19,848 nucleotides of DNA from a virus (lineage: Duplodnaviria; Heunggongvirae; Uroviricota; Caudoviricetes), in IMG/VR virus record IMGVR_UViG_2529293069_000013; one strand, given 5' to 3'. Of this stretch, positions 5,868-19,603 are shown in pieces. Within the stretch, counting starts at the first letter, position 1. Every line of letters begins with the position of its first letter. The position numbers and the translations under genes are program-made. The notes below the pieces were generated by a model. That model ran no database searches and had not been told where the DNA came from. It saw only the letters and a list, made by a program, of their open reading frames with translations.

Positions 5868-6348
5868 CAAGTAAATCCGGTAATTTATCCCCTGCCCGCG
5901 CACACTGATTTGCCCCCTTAGCAATAAGGGTTTTCAGATGGTCAAGATGGCGCGGTGTTAAATCAGGAAACTGTCGCTGCATGGATAAAGGGATGGAATC
6001 AAGCGTACTGGATAACGCCATTGCCAGCTTACTGAGGGCAAAAATACAGAACCCGGTGTCAATCAGTTTTCCTTTTGACACCTCATTTTTTAACTGCTGT
6101 GTAACAGCCTGTTCTGCTGTCAGTTCCCATCTGGCAATAAGCAATTTCTCCTCATAGTCGTCTTCGCTATCGCCATCAGACACATCGTTTTTACTTCTCC
6201 TCAGATACGATATGTAAAAATCGCGCCAGGCATCCAGATCCAGTTGCCCTCGCTTATTCGATATCGGGGCACCCGGCAATTTCTGCAATCTGCGAAGCTG
6301 GCGATCGGTCAGACTTAAATGCCTGGCAACTTCAGTCTGCGTAGCCAC
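5839..6348 (-). CDS. Nu1: Terminase small subunit Nu1-like (GTG start) with a non-lambda N-terminal HTH DNA-binding domain
   Basis: C-terminal half resembles lambda Nu1 (GFCIFALSKLA..LDSIPLSMQRQFPDL..RHLDHLK..LPDLLDEYI); the N-terminal HTH (ATQTEVARHLSLTDRQLRRL) differs from lambda; GTG at 6348..6346 preceded by GAGGTGAGGA; lies about 185 bp from cosN as in lambda. Confidence 0.85.
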   Translation of the reverse strand: MATQTEVARHLSLTDRQLRRLQKLPGAPISNKRGQLDLDAWRDFYISYLRRSKNDVSDGDSEDDYEEKLLIARWELTAEQAVTQQLKNEVSKGKLIDTGFCIFALSKLAMALSSTLDSIPLSMQRQFPDLTPRHLDHLKTLIAKGANQCARAGDKLPDLLDEYIRATTE

Positions 6349-6384
6349 TCCTCACCTCGCAAAAACTCTCACCTCACAATCACA

Positions 6385-6580
6385 ACAAAACCGGTCATGT
6401 CCGGTTTACATGTCTGTTTTTTGTTCATGTCCGGTTCACAGAAGACCTGTTTTTATATTTTTCATATAGTTAACTTGAAGAGAAACCGGACATGGATCCC
6501 GGAAAATTTTCATAAATAGCGAAAACCCGCGAGGTCGCCGCCCCGTAACCGGTCGGATCGCCGGAAAGGACCCACGAAAT
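6385..6580 (-). other. cos: cos site: cosN (12-nt cohesive end GGGCGGCGACCT, plus-strand complement at 6532..6543), cosB with three CATGTCCGGTT repeats, and a cosQ-side flank matching the lambda right end
   Basis: The reverse complement of 6501..6544 is GGGGCGGCGACCTCGCGGGTTTTCGCTATTTATGAAAATTTTCC, identical to the lambda left end. 6545..6575 matches the lambda right-end flank. Repeats sit at 6395..6406 and 6425..6436 (direct) and 6484..6494 (inverted, nearest cosN), with AT-rich DNA between them. Confidence 0.8.
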
Positions 6581-6655
6581 GATAATAATTATCATCTATA
6601 TAAGGTTTATCACAACATGTGTGTACGCCATCAAACCACGAGAAATAATCAATTA

Positions 6656-6688
6656 TGACGCAGGTATCGTATTAATTGATCTGCGTCA
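6656..6688. promoter_or_regulatory. Inverted repeat TGACGCAG-N17-CTGCGTCA upstream of the plus-strand RHH gene (candidate operator)
   Basis: 8-bp perfect inverted arms at 6656..6663 and 6681..6688, 62 bp upstream of the ATG at 6750; RHH proteins typically bind repeated half-sites near their own promoter. Confidence 0.35.
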
Positions 6689-6749
6689 AATTAACGTAAA
6701 AGCAACTTCAGATAATACAAATCAGCAACACTGAATATGGGGAAACATT

Positions 6750-6974
6750 ATGTCATCAAAGAACAGAACCCGCAGAACAACAACCCGCAACATCCGATTT
6801 CCAAACCAGATGATTGAACAAATTAACATCGCTCTTGATCTGAAAGGTTCAGGTAATTTTTCAGCGTGGGTTATTGAAGCCTGCAGAAGAAGATTAATTA
6901 ATGAAAAATATTCTCAATTTGTACCCAACAAAGACAAACACGACCAGAGCACCTGTTCAGACAGGTTTACTTAA
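6750..6974 (+). CDS. Ribbon-helix-helix (Arc/MetJ/CopG-like) DNA-binding protein, 74 aa; the only convincing plus-strand gene in the window
   Basis: RNIRFPNQMIEQINIALDLKGSGNFSAWVIEACRRRL fits the strand / helix A / G-x-N turn / helix B pattern of RHH proteins; followed by a terminator. Confidence 0.6.
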   Translation: MSSKNRTRRTTTRNIRFPNQMIEQINIALDLKGSGNFSAWVIEACRRRLINEKYSQFVPNKDKHDQSTCSDRFT

Positions 6975-6992
6975 ACGACTTATATATGACAC

Positions 6993-7019
6993 AAAAAGCG
7001 ACCACTAAAGTCGCTTTTT
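6993..7019. terminator. Bidirectional intrinsic terminator between the convergent RHH (+) and PerC-like (-) genes
   Basis: AAAAAGCGAC-cactaaa-GTCGCTTTTT: 6-10 bp stem flanked by an A-run on one side and a T-run on the other. Confidence 0.6.
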
Positions 7020-7055
7020 CTTATGGTAACAGGCAATAACTCTCTCAGATATTTT

Positions 7056-7370
7056 TTAGCATTTTTTTGACCGCGCGTTTCCGGACGTATTCTGTTCTCC
7101 TGTCCCTTTATATCGTCGGAATACCCGCCGCTCTTCAAATCCCATTCCCAACTCAGAATGTAGTCTGTTGACCGCTTGTTTTATTTCGGTCAGGTTCACC
7201 GGTGAAACCGGAGTCCGGCGCGCCTTACGCAAACACTCTGCTCGTTTCTGTGCCGCCACTTTTCTTTTCTGGTCATCACTTAGCTGTACCATCACTTTTG
7301 CCCATCGTTCAGCTGCTCTCCGGTACAGTCCTTTTTTCTCCAGACATTCTGCCACGTGATCATGTAGCAT
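7056..7370 (-). CDS. PerC-family (Pch-like) transcriptional activator, 104 aa
   Basis: The N-terminus (LEKKGLYRRAAERWAKVM) fits my recollection of the conserved PerC/Pch N-terminal motif, and 104 aa is the Pch length; strong RBS GGAGGT; located in the moron position between lysis genes and cos. Confidence 0.5.
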   Translation of the reverse strand: MLHDHVAECLEKKGLYRRAAERWAKVMVQLSDDQKRKVAAQKRAECLRKARRTPVSPVNLTEIKQAVNRLHSELGMGFEERRVFRRYKGTGEQNTSGNARSKKC

Positions 7371-7394
7371 AAGTGACCTCCGATTATCTACAGA

Positions 7395-7560
7395 CTGCCA
7401 TCCTGAATTTACCTTCCTTTAATGAAATAACAATAAAAAATAAATCACAGAAAAACAACAAAACAACACACAAAAAAACTAAATAATAAACCCAAATAAT
7501 CACCTTATTTTATTATTTTTTGAGAGAGCTATTACTGAACAAAAAACGCTGACTATATAC
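7395..7560. repeat. AT-rich, A/CA-rich low-complexity intergenic tract upstream of the PerC-like gene
   Basis: Runs such as aataaaaaataaatcacagaaaaacaacaaaacaacacacaaaaaaactaaataataaa; no ORF; typical of horizontally acquired regulatory DNA. Confidence 0.5.
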
Positions 7561-7834
7561 TCAAAACCAAACAACTATTCTGCCAATCAGGTATAATGGC
7601 AACACAAGGAATTACCGTGTTTTTGCCTTCTCTGCCCATACAATACGGACATATACTTCATACTCTATTGTAATATTTCCATCCATGCGAACAACTTCAT
7701 TTATCTGTAAATAATATTCAAAATATTTATCACAGAAATCGTTTTTGGCCATGAACTGAGCACACTATAAAGTCCGGAACTGACTCTTTGTTAAATTACC
7801 TTAACGTTACCAGTAACACCTTCATAACAAAACA

Positions 7835-8302
7835 TCACGGTATACACTGGGTACGGATATATTCCTGTGCTCCTTCCAGTTGCTTCTGCATTGCCATCAG
7901 CCGTTCTCTGAGGATGAAATAATCCCGTTCAGCGGCTTCTGCCAGTCGGGGACCGGTTGCATTATCCACGCCGGAGGTGATGGGGGCTTTACGCAAGGAG
8001 CCTGGACAGTTGGCGTTGATGCGCAGGCGCTTACGACCAGCGGCAACATCAGCACGCAGAGTTTCATTTTCAGCTCTCGCATCGGCTAATTCCCTCGAGT
8101 ATCTGGCATCAAGTGCAGCGACATCACGCTGGCGTACCTGCATATCAGTAATTGTCACGTTCGCCAGCTTCAGCTCACTGGCTTTTTTATCGCGTTGCGC
8201 TTTGTAGGTAATGGCGTTATCGCGGTAATGATTCAGCCCCAGACTAAGCACACCACAGGCTACCAGCAGGACAATAATCACCACACACAGAACACGGTTC
8301 AT
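7835..8302 (-). CDS. Rz: Rz i-spanin (inner-membrane spanin subunit)
   Basis: 155 aa; [56 protein letters not shown] resembles lambda Rz. Confidence 0.85.
7897..8082 (-). CDS. Rz1: Rz1 o-spanin lipoprotein, embedded in the +1 frame of Rz
   Basis: [20 protein letters not shown] (lipobox) ...[27 protein letters not shown] resembles lambda Rz1; the gene is nested within Rz. Confidence 0.8.
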
Positions 8303-11830: not shown

Positions 11831-12031
11831 GAAAATAAAGGGATAACGATGATAGTTTGAGAAAAACAGAAATAACACTTTTGTGGCAAAGCATGGTGCC
11901 GGGTGCCTCCCGGTGAATTCAGTATCAGCACCTGAATCCGCGATTACCCCATATTCCTTCTTGCTGATTGCCCCACCGCACAGGGGGATTCACCATGCAG
12001 AAGTGTTTTTAATAAACAGCAAACAAAAAAA

Positions 12032-12797: not shown

Positions 12798-12874
12798 TGG
12801 TGCGTTGTACTGGGTTCGAACCAGTGACCGATTGCTTAGAAGGCAATTGCTCTGTCCGGCTGAGCTAAAAACGC
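12798..12874 (-). tRNA. tRNA-Arg (anticodon UCU)
   Basis: 77-nt cloverleaf GCGTTTT-TA-GCTC..GAGC-ATTGC-CTTCTAA-GCAAT-..-CTGG-TTCGAAC-CCAG-ACAACGC-A-CCA; anticodon loop CU-UCU-AA. Confidence 0.85.
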
Positions 12875-12887
12875 AGAATACCGATAA

Positions 12888-12964
12888 TGGACCGCCATCG
12901 GAGACTCGAACCCCGCGAAACCAGCTTCGAAGGCTGGCGTTCTATCCCGATGAGCTAATGGCGG
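12888..12964 (-). tRNA. tRNA-Arg (anticodon UCG)
   Basis: 77-nt cloverleaf with anticodon arm CCAGC-CTTCGAA-GCTGG, T-arm CGGGG-TTCGAGT-CTCCG and a 7-bp acceptor stem plus TCCA; the D-stem has one mismatch. Confidence 0.75.
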
Positions 12965-12971
12965 TATGTGA

Positions 12972-13047
12972 TGGTGGCCCTTGCTGGATTTGAACCAGCG
13001 GCCTGGCGATTATGAGTCGCTCGCTCTCACCACTGAGCTAAAGGGCC
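12972..13047 (-). tRNA. tRNA-Ile2 (anticodon CAU, ileX/ileZ-like; Met cannot be excluded)
   Basis: GGCCCTTTAGCTCAGTGGTGAGAGCGAGCGACTCATAATCGCCAGGCCGCTGGTTCAAATCCAGCAAGGGCCACCA is very similar to E. coli ileX as I recall it; anticodon loop CU-CAU-AA. Confidence 0.85.
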
Positions 13048-15812: not shown

Positions 15813-15968
15813 TTACTCCTCAGGTTCGTAAGCTGTGAAGACAGCGACCTCCGTCTGGCCGGTTCGGATTCGTACCTCGCAGAGGTCTTTCCTCGTTACC
15901 AGTGCCGTCACTATGACGGTTAAACAGATGACGATCAGGGCGATTAACATCGCCTTTTGCTGCTTCAT
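15813..15968 (-). CDS. hok: Hok/Gef-family type I toxin, 51 aa
   Basis: MKQQKAMLIALIVICLTVIVTALVTRKDLCEVRIRTGQTEVAVFTAYEPEE against plasmid R1 Hok [58 protein letters not shown] RBS 9 nt upstream of ATG 15968. Confidence 0.8.
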   Translation of the reverse strand: MKQQKAMLIALIVICLTVIVTALVTRKDLCEVRIRTGQTEVAVFTAYEPEE

Positions 15969-16143
15969 AACCTGCTTCTCCTTGCCTTTCGGCGCGTAAG
16001 AGGCTAACCTACGTTTGTGAAGCATAGATTGGGCCTCAGATTAATGTTAAGCGTCTTGCAGGACGCGTAATGTTAACTGGGGCTTTTCTCTGTCTGCCTT
16101 ACGGTGGCATGCCCGAGGCAGACAGCCTCAAGCACCCGCAGCA

Positions 16144-16351: not shown

Positions 16352-16429
16352 TTACCCCCACCGACAAATAACATATACTAGAAAAGCAATAGCTATAGCA
16401 ACGCCTGCAAATGCATCTGGCCGGCTCAT
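16352..16429 (-). CDS. Small hydrophobic peptide, 25 aa, translationally coupled to the 187-aa gene
   Basis: ATG 16429..16427 overlaps the upstream TGA (ATGA); RBS GGGGGAG; hand translation MSRPDAFAGVAIAIAFLVYVICRWG. Confidence 0.4.
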   Translation of the reverse strand: MSRPDAFAGVAIAIAFLVYVICRWG

Positions 16430-16989
16430 TGGTTCTCCCCCTGTGTCGCTTCTACTGCGATCTGACTGGCGTATTCGTTAATGGTAACGATAAGTTCTTG
16501 CTCGACCTCATCCAGACAACTACCGATACCTCGCCTGTCCACTTCAGAAGCATCGAAATCTGCACGAAGCCTGGCGACCTTCAGGATTGCGGACAACACC
16601 TCATCAGGGATTGCCGGAGAGTTGGTTGACGTTTCCGAGATTATCCGAAAATTATTGGTTGACGAACCCTTATTTTCCCGAAAGTTTCCAGCCTGAAGCA
16701 TGGCGGCGCGGTGACACCAGATAATCCAGCCAAGCGCCATATCCCATGCCATGTATTCTCTATCGCCATTTTTTGCTCTGCGGCGATCTACAGATTCCCC
16801 GAAACGCTTCTCCATAAATAATTCATAGGCTGCCCGTTCATCCGATACTGATGCCAGTGATGCCAGTGCAATTTTTAATGCGGTAAGCATGTTGTTTTGA
16901 TCTTCATCGAGTCCGAACGGTATTTCATCCCGTGATGACTCAATTCCGGTAATCGTGTTCTGTAGCCATTCTTTGGTTAATTCAGTCAT
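16426..16989 (-). CDS. Hypothetical protein, 187 aa, unknown function
   Basis: Long ORF preceded by a 125-bp intergenic gap containing a GNRA-tetraloop hairpin (16998..17015); no motif recognised. Confidence 0.6.
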   Translation of the reverse strand: MTELTKEWLQNTITGIESSRDEIPFGLDEDQNNMLTALKIALASLASVSDERAAYELFMEKRFGESVDRRRAKNGDREYMAWDMALGWIIWCHRAAMLQAGNFRENKGSSTNNFRIISETSTNSPAIPDEVLSAILKVARLRADFDASEVDRRGIGSCLDEVEQELIVTINEYASQIAVEATQGENQ

Positions 16990-17115
16990 TTTTCACTACC
17001 GCCCTTTCGGGCGGTCTCCTGATGTTCTGAGGGTGCAGGAATCCCTCCGGTTAAGGATTTAATAAAAATCATTTCTGATTTAAATTTTCAGTGTTTAGTT
17101 GTTGGTTTATAGCCT

Positions 17116-17427
17116 TTATGCTTCGGCCTTATTTCTCAGCCATACACAAACAGGACCATCTTCGGTGTCATGTATCGAACCGATAAACCATCCCTCACCT
17201 TCTGGTCGCTCAGGTTCCCATGCTGAAATATCAGGGCCATCTGCGTCCAGATTAAAATCATCTTCATCCATACTACGGATAGCCCACTGAAGATTATTTT
17301 TCTCCATCCAGGCGTTAAACTCTTCCGTTGAAATATATTCCCGACCATCACAGAATTTTTCATATTCAGGATGCGTCCAGCAGCCATATTCATTACGTTC
17401 CACTGGCATTTCTTTAATTGCGCTCAT
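17116..17427 (-). CDS. Hypothetical highly acidic, Trp-rich protein, 103 aa
   Basis: Roughly 28% Asp+Glu; ATGA overlap with the upstream gene; RBS AAGGGGGG. Confidence 0.6.
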   Translation of the reverse strand: MSAIKEMPVERNEYGCWTHPEYEKFCDGREYISTEEFNAWMEKNNLQWAIRSMDEDDFNLDADGPDISAWEPERPEGEGWFIGSIHDTEDGPVCVWLRNKAEA

Positions 17428-17612
17428 TTACCCCCCTTATTTAATTTTCTACGACACTTTTTACAATCATCTGGACTTTCGAATGTATCCGGCTCACGCT
17501 CATTGCCAAAATACATCCACCCACCGCAAATACTTGTTATTTCACCTTCAGCAAAATAATGATGTTTTTTCGCCATAAGTGGCCTTGCCCAGCCCGGATT
17601 CGTTTTACTCAC
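17424..17612 (-). CDS. Hypothetical small protein, 62 aa (GTG start), Cys/His-containing
   Basis: GTG 17612 overlaps the upstream TGA (GTGA); strong RBS AAGGAGG with a 7-nt spacer. Confidence 0.55.
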   Translation of the reverse strand: MSKTNPGWARPLMAKKHHYFAEGEITSICGGWMYFGNEREPDTFESPDDCKKCRRKLNKGGK

Positions 17613-17965
17613 TTGTTGCCTCCTTTGCGAAGCTCTGCGACTAACTCGTCACATATGTGCGTCAAAGAGCAAAGTTTGATTGCTGGATGTTCGCGCACCA
17701 TCTCCACACCCTGCGCCCGCAATTCTGCCAGAAAAGCGTAGGGGTCAGTTTTTTCACTGTGGTACATGGCATCATAGATAATCATTGCAGCGACACCTGC
17801 CTGTCCTGCATCTGTGACGGATATATGCTCAAGGGCTACGGCCATTGCGTGTTTCAACCTCTCATTTTCCACCTCAAGCACCACACGATTAGCCTCCAGC
17901 TCTTCTATGCGTTTTTTTGCTGCTCCCAGCTCAACACGCAGCTCCTGATAGTTAATCTCGCTCAT
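17609..17965 (-). CDS. Hypothetical protein, 118 aa, with an N-terminal coiled-coil-like segment
   Basis: ATGA overlap with the upstream gene; RBS GGGAGGAAGGAGA; N-terminus ELRVELGAAKKRIEELEANRVVLEVENERLK has heptad character. Confidence 0.6.
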   Translation of the reverse strand: MSEINYQELRVELGAAKKRIEELEANRVVLEVENERLKHAMAVALEHISVTDAGQAGVAAMIIYDAMYHSEKTDPYAFLAELRAQGVEMVREHPAIKLCSLTHICDELVAELRKGGNK

Positions 17966-18186
17966 TCTCCTTCCTCCCGCACTGCTGTTTTATATGCCCG
18001 AAGCACATGCGATGTTTTTCCTGACACAGTGCTTCTCAGAAAGAAAATTCCACTGGTGTTTATTACCAGATACGGGTCAGCAAGACGCAGCATATCCAGT
18101 ATGTGATTATGTTTTCTTGTTTCCAGCACCGTACTTGAAATAAGCATATGTGACACGGGGCCGAAATCATGATATCTGATTTTCAT
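17962..18186 (-). CDS. Hypothetical protein, 74 aa
   Basis: ATG 18186 with a moderate RBS; first gene of a four-gene translationally coupled block. Confidence 0.5.
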   Translation of the reverse strand: MKIRYHDFGPVSHMLISSTVLETRKHNHILDMLRLADPYLVINTSGIFFLRSTVSGKTSHVLRAYKTAVREEGE

Positions 18187-18207: not shown

Positions 18208-18906
18208 TTACCCGTTATCTCCTGTCGTTATTTTCTGTATGACATCACGATGCTTATTAATTTCCCGCAGCGCGGCGCATAAGCGCTCCCACTTCTGAAC
18301 CTGACCTTTTGCCCGGCGCAGCTCGCGGTTAGCCACATGCAGCGATGGTAAAATCAGACCATCCGGATGCTTTCTGATGAACGACGACTGTGACTGCACT
18401 GTGACCGCCACACTTTCAGTTTTAATTTCTTCCTGTGTTTCCGCTTCCCGGACTGGTAACGCAACACCTGCCGGCTGAGGAAAGGCTTTACCATCGGTTT
18501 CCGTTACCGATGCAGCTTTCGGCTCTGCCGGTAAATTATCGCCCGGTATGCAGTAACGATATTTACCGTCCTGATTTACGCGAATCAGACGACCTTTGCT
18601 GACAGCCATCGCCAGTGATGAATTCGCCCGGCGGGAGGTAATCCCGAACATTAACGCCAGTTCGTCAGCCGACTGAGGACCATGCTGTTCAATCGCGTTA
18701 ATCAGCATCTCTGCAGTGGTTTTTGGGGCCGCTTCAGTTGCCTCACTCGTCAGCCACCACATCGACCCCTTGTTATCAGCTTCGCCACGACGCTTCAGCT
18801 TCCAGAGTTCGGTAACAGCATCGTCACGGCTGATTTCAAGACGGGCTGCAATCTCGTGCGACGAGGCTTTTTTCAGTGCTTTCAGTGCGTCAAAAACGGT
18901 TTCCAT
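18208..18906 (-). CDS. Hypothetical protein with two winged-helix-like segments, 232 aa from ATG 18906 (the track ORF extends to 18972)
   Basis: ATG 18906 has GGGAGG 8 nt upstream, whereas the 18972 start overlaps the P-like gene by 32 nt with a weak RBS; segments [25 protein letters not shown] and [31 protein letters not shown] look like wHTH. Confidence 0.5.
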
Positions 18907-18940
18907 TAAATTTTCCTCCCGGTAAAAATTACTTCTCAAC

Positions 18941-19603
18941 TCAGACAAAACCGGCCGCCTTCCGGCGCTCATATTCCTGTTTCAGCAACTCAATTGGCGT
19001 TGGCCCTGGCGGGCGTTTGGGTGCTGCCAGTTGTCGCCGGACTGGCGGAACACTGAGGCCATTACCAACATGCTTTGCCCATTTCGTCAGCTGCCTTTCC
19101 ACAAGCCGTTTTAACTCCCCTTCGGTCATCTGGCGCTCAATCCCCTTTGAACGCATCTCGAGGCAAATGTGGTACAGCACCGGCTGTGGCCACGGGTATT
19201 TATCACTCCCGTCGTACCGCCAGGATTCATTCCTCCAGCGACGGTATTCCTCCATCACGGCATCCACCGTCAGGCCAAATGGATTTGCCCCGCTCTCCGA
19301 AATCAACGCCACAAACTCAGCCAGATCCGGAGGCCACGTTTCACCCGCCCGGCAGCGGTCCATGCACCGACGGCAGATCTGCCGAATTTGCTGTTCAGTC
19401 ATCGCGCCAATCTGAGCAATCCAGAGTTTCGACGGCGCAGCCCCGTTCTTCTGAGTCCAGCGGTTCGAATACACCTCCCCCATAAGCTCCCACAGCTTCC
19501 AGGCCGTTTCCGTTGCTGATAAATCCGTTTTCACGTTCCCACTGTTCGCGTGCAGCCCGGATTTCCTGAACTGCCCGTGATGCGGTGCCACCTGGTGCTG
19601 CAT
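18941..19603 (-). CDS. Lambda P-like replication protein (helicase loader family), 220 aa
   Basis: Tentative alignment with lambda P (ours [29 protein letters not shown] against lambda QWVLAFRENGITTMEQ..RPFLPSPGQFVAW); strong RBS AAGGGGG before ATG 19603; no Walker A motif, so not DnaC-like. Confidence 0.55.

Follow-up and report, generated by a model that had tools for sequence, protein, structure and literature searches.

Four overlapping small genes in the early-right operon of an O157:H7 lambdoid prophage as probable accessory genes of the exo-xis type

Lambdoid prophages are mosaics, and the small genes in their early operons are difficult to assign to functional units by position alone. 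The window analyzed here is a stretch of 19,848 nucleotides (nt) from the viral record IMGVR_UViG_2529293069_000013, and its positions 17116-18186 contain four small genes on the minus strand, encoding proteins of 74, 118, 62 and 103 amino acids (aa). An initial annotation of this DNA had regarded them as one co-expressed cassette, a candidate early accessory or anti-defense module. We propose instead, with a probability of about 0.65, that each of the four is a separately mobile accessory gene, non-essential and of the exo-xis or 'ea' type normally present in the early-left operon, and that they have been transplanted into the pR operon. The parts of this reading that concern the identity and the evolution of the genes are well supported. 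Its biochemical mechanism, taken from analogy, is a guess with odds of roughly one in three.

The four genes do not form one module because they assort independently. Among 41 loci of other species that carry a homolog of the 103-aa gene, none has a homolog of the 74-, 118- or 62-aa gene within 6 kb, and homologs of the flanking 187-aa, DUF1627 and P genes are likewise absent over that distance. The intact four-gene block is present in 333 of 5426 complete Escherichia coli genomes, with 339 records reaching 99% identity or more. No sampled full-length copy falls below 99.7% identity, which points to a single prophage lineage, and wherever a copy has a serotype label it is O157. Several hundred other E. 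coli genomes carry the 103-aa gene alone at 80-90% identity, with the homology stopping at its start codon, and still others share no more of the 118-aa gene than its last 43 codons, inside Ead/Ea22 genes. The absence of co-occurrence in all 41 loci and the confinement of the block to one lineage lead us to reject a conserved operon or obligate multi-gene system, and the initial claim of one coherent module falls with it, the 103-aa gene being mostly alone in E. coli. The block is an ordinary product of lambdoid mosaicism.

The open reading frames (ORFs) themselves lie where they had been placed, with 4-nt overlaps of ATGA at 17965-17962, GTGA at 17612-17609 and ATGA at 17427-17424 (Table 1). 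They are more than chance ORFs because all four proteins match PHROG families of unknown function (E 9e-24 to 2e-55), because dN/dS indicates purifying selection on the 103-aa gene (0.11) and on the 74-aa gene (0.13, compared with Fels-1), and because the 62-aa gene retains 70-77% protein identity where synonymous sites are saturated. Scans of the four proteins against Pfam, NCBIfam and PADLOC gave nothing above threshold, PDB sequence searches gave no significant match, and literature searches (by accession, by PHROG identifier, for exo-xis with anti-defense, and for Ea22-like) found nothing on these proteins. A strong ribosome-binding site had been ascribed to each gene, which holds for the 118-, 62- and 103-aa genes; the 74-aa gene has only a moderate Shine-Dalgarno (SD) sequence, GGGTGA, 21 nt past the DUF1627 stop. 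No terminator-like site was found inside 17116-18186, promoter-like matches there are at chance level, and an Rfam scan identified no RNA family within the four-gene region. The genes are real and probably co-transcribed and translationally coupled, as had been argued from their overlaps. However, overlapping starts are usual in all the small-gene strings that we examined, namely in Fels-1, Stx phages and Mu-like regions. Since they are the norm in such strings, the overlaps by themselves are no sign of a functional unit; they are the common joinery of mosaic strings and not the mark of a dedicated system.

The failure to match any of the four to a lambda nin gene was confirmed, as none matches ninA-ninH, Ren, Rap or Roi in Pfam, NCBIfam or PHROG. 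Two of them, the 118- and the 62-aa genes, are nevertheless related to a lambda gene, namely ea22, whose place is the exo-xis region rather than nin. The 118-aa gene is a descendant of the Ead/Ea22 family (lambda ea22, P22 ead) with an in-frame, microhomology-mediated deletion of 309 bp (103 codons), a descent supported by its identity with a full-length family member and by CTGCGTG repeats at the DNA junction. Database clusters with the exact proteins include longer 'ead/Ea22-like' proteins, and the name 'eae-like protein' is used in the sources. Residues 1-10 correspond to residues 1-10 of database protein P0145 (221 aa; PF13935 match of 120.7 bits, E 9e-35) at 90% identity, and residues 8-118 to its residues 111-221 at 98%. 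The 103 residues between the two matches, which are missing from the 118-aa protein, constitute the conserved N-terminal PF13935 domain, and what the gene retains is the first 10 codons, the putative coiled-coil segment and a C-terminal domain. Because the conserved domain is deleted, the protein itself scores only 18.1 bits against PF13935 (cutoff 27), and the match covers only the coiled-coil end of the model. Residues 5-45 match several coiled-coil families, as well as the coiled-coil part of PF13935, weakly. The deletion endpoints were set on the DNA of VT1-Sakai ea22, in place of the full-length P0145 allele. The same 9 nt of the window (17943-17935) align to positions 63-71 and 372-380 of VT1-Sakai ea22, 309 nt apart, and both sites carry CTGCGTG. 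Glu8, an unusual codon (G/AG), is the chimeric junction codon. The C-terminal domain was compared with that of lambda Ea22 and is unrelated to it.

The 62-aa gene is an Ea22 C-terminal 'cargo' module that stands here as a gene of its own. Its product is 92% identical to residues 106-166 of P0180 (168 aa), a protein in which residues 1-101 form a PF13935 domain. Being the counterpart only of the P0180 cargo domain, the 62-aa protein has no Pfam match to PF13935; it does not match the Lar/Ral model PF14354 either, and Lar genes are merely neighbors of its homologs in loci L047 and L049. The Cys/His content pointed out initially amounts to 3 Cys and 2 His, and all five residues (H17, H18, C29, C50 and C53) are invariant in the 17 sequences of the family. 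They thus make up the set of four or more invariant Cys/His ligands, with a CxxC at a helix start, expected of a zinc knuckle: the CxxC spans residues 50-53 and a helix is modeled at 51-60. Together with a local similarity to the RING knuckle CPTCRKKIN, this sequence pattern makes an HH-C-CxxC metal-binding knuckle probable. A BPTI/Kunitz-like pattern seen in a PDB search (E 0.05) was rejected as due to chance, having vanished with a family profile. RefSeq/PGAP starts this gene at ATG 17576 (50 aa; 17424-17576). The GTG start at 17612, giving 62 aa, is better supported, since it is preceded by an AAGGAGG site, since the upstream 12 residues are conserved, and since most homologs keep the N-terminal 'GWARP' segment and likewise overlap their upstream gene.

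Free-standing homologs of the 62-aa protein (62-70 aa) are overlap-coupled to five different upstream genes. One lies immediately after a 132-aa Ead_Ea22 gene (L047, Trabulsiella) and one immediately before a 134-aa Ead_Ea22 gene (L050); two follow a P-like replication gene (L048 and L049), and another occupies a Mu-like early region between DUF2786 and GemA/Mor (L046). These contexts bear on the alternative that the 118- and 62-aa genes, perhaps with the 74-aa gene, constitute a split Ea22 system, in which the coiled-coil protein would recruit the 62-aa module in trans and so recreate the architecture of N-domain, coiled coil and cargo. The fusion of the module to an Ea22 N-domain and coiled coil in P0180 is consistent with such a system, as are its position beside Ead_Ea22 genes in two of six independent contexts, in addition to the window, and the presence of the 74-aa gene directly ahead of a full-length Ea22 allele. 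Yet the module is also found with no Ea22 gene nearby in the Mu-like early region, in the post-P region and in another prophage, and the Ea22 gene of the window lacks the conserved domain of its family. Moreover, fission and fusion during the swapping of C-terminal domains explain the adjacency without any interaction. We consider a split system improbable.

The 74-aa gene is a small gene of the exo-xis-region type that is located here immediately 5' of an Ea22-derived gene. Its basic product matches phrog_1001 (E 9e-24) and has almost no close relatives outside E. coli, a homology search having given only three clusters. Homologs at 34-49% identity are found in Fels-1, in Klebsiella prophages and in many Stx phages, two to three genes upstream of xis-int and within runs of small genes with 4-nt overlaps. 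Database protein P0147 is the 74-aa ORF frameshift-fused to a full-length Ea22-like gene; the two genes therefore adjoin in other strains too. The slot directly 5' of ea22 is occupied by a TraR-like gene in VT1-Sakai and by the unrelated 74-aa gene in the window. Although this position suggested a TraR/Orf73 homolog, the 74-aa protein was rejected as one, as it has no Cys, no Pfam match and no C4 zinc finger. The VT1-Sakai gene itself (73 aa; L056 1283-1504) overlaps the start of ea22 (1501-2448) by 4 nt and is called DksA-like zinc-finger or TraR/YbiI in related records.

The 103-aa protein is a single copy of a widespread, unnamed and portable acidic domain common to phages and F-type conjugative elements. 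The family comprises 160 clusters by indexed search and 927 representative clusters by exhaustive profile search (more than 900 when counted at 50% identity), from phages of Enterobacterales, Pseudomonas, Burkholderia, Vibrio and Acinetobacter. The acidic and Trp-rich composition noted at the outset is borne out by computation, with an isoelectric point (pI) of 4.21, a net charge of -16, 25 Asp and Glu, and 6 Trp. This acidity is conserved: the 43 aligned members have a pI of 4.05-4.76 and a net charge of -9 to -22, a high charge throughout, and 13 alignment columns are at least 70% acidic. The invariant positions are mostly aromatic or Gly (YGxWTHPxY, EFxxW and DISxWxPxxPxGxGWFxGSIHDTEDGxxCxWLR), and a central acidic loop varies in both sequence and length.

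The domain has been found in diverse settings. In 14 of the 41 loci mentioned above, the homolog belongs to an F-type transfer operon, where it directly precedes TraU and TrbC; the operons come from Pantoea, Erwinia, Enterobacter, Citrobacter and Atlantibacter, and one of them is on plasmid pB of Pantoea allii (these loci include L019, L022, L029, L030, L033-L039 and L041, with the homologs at about 6000-7950). TraW lies upstream of the homolog in L019, the sole locus checked for it. About 7 of the 41 are near lambda-type integrases, and the remaining loci have RecT, Dam, methylases, DndB or Ead_Ea22 genes as neighbors. In phage mEp213 the homolog is located between N and cIII, and in phiSTEC1575-Stx2k directly upstream of an Ea22N-DUF551 gene. 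Of the 70 multidomain relatives that were scanned, about 60 have no Pfam partner. A Lar domain occurs in 3, an Rv2179c-like exoribonuclease in 2, and a Tad2-like, KTSC, TrwB or DHHA1 domain in 1 each. As none of the 70 carries Ead_Ea22, we rejected the idea that the 103-aa domain is a further Ea22 cargo domain. One relative, P0225 (305 aa), carries two tandem copies of the domain, and several others have an unannotated helical partner domain with the motif LVKAGALILAEIERLDR on either side of it.

It had been suggested that this composition resembles that of DNA-mimic anti-restriction proteins. The leading alternative for the 103-aa protein is indeed that it acts, alone or with its neighbors, as an anti-restriction or anti-defense factor, an acidic nucleic-acid mimic or decoy. 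When the element comes into a cell or is reactivated there, such a protein would block a nuclease or sensor of the host. The uniformly strong acidity of the 43 aligned members and the occurrence of the family on both phages and conjugative elements agree with this idea. So do the partner domains in a few relatives, given that Lar alleviates restriction (3/70) and the Tad2-like domain counters Thoeris defense (1/70), and the Lar gene found in two neighborhoods of the 62-aa homolog. In lambda and P22 the slot between N and cIII holds ral, and in mEp213 the 103-aa homolog fills this slot. However, the predicted fold matches neither a known mimic nor any other solved structure, and the invariant residues of the family are mostly aromatic or Gly. 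In addition, no Pfam, NCBIfam or PADLOC family was matched at E of 0.1 or below, including Ocr (PF08684) and ArdA (PF07275). We therefore regard the decoy alternative as unlikely, and equally so its broader form, in which the family would be a new class of counter-defense or host-takeover decoys neutralizing a host defense or DNA-processing protein. If it were true, the binding site would be made up of the aromatic face together with the invariant IHDTEDG hairpin.

A third alternative is that the block, or at least the 118-aa gene, is decaying baggage of a cryptic prophage without current function. The integrase of the prophage is frameshifted and further genes are pseudogenized, the 118-aa gene is short of 103 codons, among them those of its Pfam domain, and the block is at least 99% identical across its lineage, so that selection on the block itself is not measurable. 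Against this, all four frames, the SD sites and the overlaps are intact, and the 74-, 62- and 103-aa families are under strong purifying selection elsewhere. The deletion is in frame and leaves a layout of short N-terminus, putative coiled coil and C-terminal domain like that of lambda Ea22 (PMC10834534). Decay is in our view a less probable account, albeit one to be taken seriously for the 118-aa gene. As the three alternatives concern different genes, they are not mutually exclusive.

How would four separately mobile accessory genes operate? According to published work, Ea22 has a short N-domain followed by a coiled coil and by a C-terminal domain that is specific to the phage; it is tetrameric, very early transcribed and pro-lysogenic, and it probably acts via an unknown host protein (PMC7093339, PMC10834534). 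A small protein that is common to tra operons and the exo-xis region and works directly on a host machine has a precedent in TraR/Orf73 (PMC9239242). The four ORFs would be transcribed together and translated by stop/start coupling. Each product, if it resembles Ea22 and the other exo-xis proteins, would be a small protein-binding modulator of a host factor, made soon after the operon is switched on, that might tune the lysis/lysogeny outcome or host physiology. The 74-aa basic protein is of the kind that commonly precedes ea22-type genes. The 118-aa protein would still provide an oligomerizing coiled coil and a C-terminal domain, the former presenting the latter as an oligomer, and the 62-aa knuckle would be one of the interchangeable Ea22 cargo modules, produced alone. 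For the 103-aa protein, presumably an acidic alpha/beta domain, the most likely partner would be a basic and possibly nucleic-acid-binding one, contacted by way of the invariant aromatic face and the IHDTEDG hairpin.

Several points weigh against interpreting the genes in this way. The favored functional reading is built on sequence and context for all four predicted proteins, and structure models revealed no functional analog. The 118-aa gene may be a dead remnant in a prophage that is itself defective. The 62-aa module is repeatedly associated with Ea22 genes, perhaps because the two truly cooperate, in which case part of the string would be a functional pair. The conserved acidity of the 103-aa family and its occasional Lar- or Tad2-like fusions also fit a counter-defense role.

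The genomic setting is that of a known prophage. The window is 100% identical to a lambdoid prophage of E. coli O157:H7 strain 493/89 that adjoins tRNA-Ser and mtfA. On the minus strand, Cro, YdaT, a DnaT-like O, P and DUF1627 precede the four ORFs, which are followed by an acidic 187-aa ORF, hok/sok, DUF968, RusA and Q, and then by three tRNAs and the lysis and head genes. The string thus forms the end of the early-right (pR) operon, after the replication genes and before the place that nin has in lambda, and its description as early accessory genes agrees with this location. The prophage is probably defective because the integrase is frameshifted in the reference strain (L001 27003-28053) and a TerB-family gene is interrupted by a stop. 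For DUF1627 (18208-18972, 254 aa) and P (18941-19603, 220 aa), the longest ORFs overlap their neighbors; RefSeq calls both shorter (232 and 153 aa), and their true starts are probably internal to the longest ORFs. Further downstream, Rfam identifies the sok antitoxin RNA (with hokD; 15963-16137), the small RNA STnc100 (11855-12027) and the three tRNA genes downstream of Q (12801-13047), which are usual features of O157 lambdoid prophages.

Table 1. Positions of the four genes and of associated sequence elements in the window
Feature	Position	Strand	Description
74-aa gene	18186..17962	minus	ATG start; basic, pI 9.6, no Cys; PHROG 1001
Shine-Dalgarno of 118-aa gene	17966..17977	minus	GGAGGAAGGAGA; within last codons (…EEGE) of 74-aa gene
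118-aa gene	17965..17609	minus	ATG start; Ead/Ea22-family gene, internally deleted
Deletion junction	17935..17943	minus	AGCTGCGTG; core repeat CTGCGTG; blastn vs VT1-Sakai ea22
Shine-Dalgarno of 62-aa gene	17619..17625	minus	AAGGAGG; 6 nt ahead of GTG, within …KGGNK tail of 118-aa gene
62-aa gene	17612..17424	minus	GTG start; basic, probable HH-C-CxxC knuckle protein; PHROG 2358
Shine-Dalgarno of 103-aa gene	17431..17438	minus	AAGGGGGG; within …NKGGK tail of 62-aa gene
103-aa gene	17427..17116	minus	ATG start; acidic, Trp-rich, single domain copy; PHROG 1372
Hairpin	16998..17015	minus	GC-rich, ACCGCCC-GAAA-GGGCGGU; RNA fold z = -3.25

The hairpin at 16998-17015 lies in the 126-nt gap (16990-17115) downstream of the 103-aa gene, at the 3' boundary of the coupled string and 5 nt ahead of the SD and start of the 187-aa gene. 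A canonical terminator was ruled out, as no U-tract follows the hairpin. Matches in mEp460_4F5 and Rac-SA53 span positions 17000-17430 of the window, so that the hairpin travels with the 103-aa gene. It may be an element of RNA stability or processing, or a mosaic boundary. The 187-aa protein encoded next (16426-16989, minus strand) is acidic (pI 4.6) and looks like the product of another mosaic accessory gene, because it belongs to no Pfam family and its residues 1-47, 48-98 and 93-181 match different PHROG families.

A side observation concerns the common C-terminal 'K/R-G-E' motif, which the Ea22 papers describe and leave unexplained. The end of lambda ea22 (L052 2448-2460) reads AAA GGA GAG TGA, which is an AAGGAG Shine-Dalgarno sequence together with a GTGA overlap. 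VT1-Sakai Ea22 ends in …IKGE (L056 2448), and the Trabulsiella Ea22 in …GKGE right at the next start codon (L047 4001). The tails …EEGE (17962-17977), …KGGNK (17609-17625) and …NKGGK (17424-17438) in the window likewise encode the SD of the following gene. The motif is probably a matter of nucleotide-level coupling or of a recombination junction and not of protein function.

This analysis does not overturn current understanding; four proteins listed as hypothetical in hundreds of sequenced O157:H7 genomes can now be classed as products of probable exo-xis/ea-type accessory genes. The most useful new points are the deletion in Ea22, the free-standing Ea22 cargo domain and the acidic family of phages and conjugative elements. 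Published work pictures Ea22 as a scaffold whose cargo domains can be swapped, to which we add that a cargo domain can also exist as a free gene. The large unnamed family of the 103-aa protein is a reasonable candidate for functional screening.

Compared with known systems, the 103-aa protein shares with the DNA mimics T7 Ocr and ArdA that it is strongly acidic, small, encoded by mobile elements and probably expressed early. With F-plasmid TraR and lambda Orf73 the analogy is functional only: like them, the 103-aa family is found in F-type transfer operons and phage early regions, but there is no relationship in sequence or fold. TraR is a C4 zinc-finger protein that binds RNA polymerase, whereas Cys is absent from the 74-aa protein and the 103-aa protein appears to be an acidic alpha/beta domain. 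The closer likeness is to the exo-xis set (orf60a, orf63, orf61, orf73, ea22 and ea8.5). Its members, too, are early genes that are non-essential, overlapping and very small, and they differ from phage to phage. In other phages, the exo-xis region or the neighborhood of xis-int is where homologs of the 74-, 62- and 103-aa genes, as well as the parent of the 118-aa gene, are located. The four genes differ from this set in genome location, and none is homologous in sequence to orf60a, orf61, orf63, orf73 or ea8.5. With respect to Ea22/Ead (PF13935), the window genes lie in the pR operon after P and not between exo and xis, the 118-aa gene lacks the family-defining N-terminal domain and has a C-terminal domain unrelated to the solved one of lambda, and the 62-aa module is a free-standing ORF. 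Nevertheless, the 118-aa gene shares with the family the first 10 residues, MSEINYQxLR, and the putative coiled-coil segment, its product is 98% identical to the C-terminal 111 residues of one genuine member, and the 62-aa protein is 92% identical to the C-terminal domain of another. The modular plan, with an N-domain, a putative coiled coil and a swappable C-terminal domain, is the one published for Ea22.

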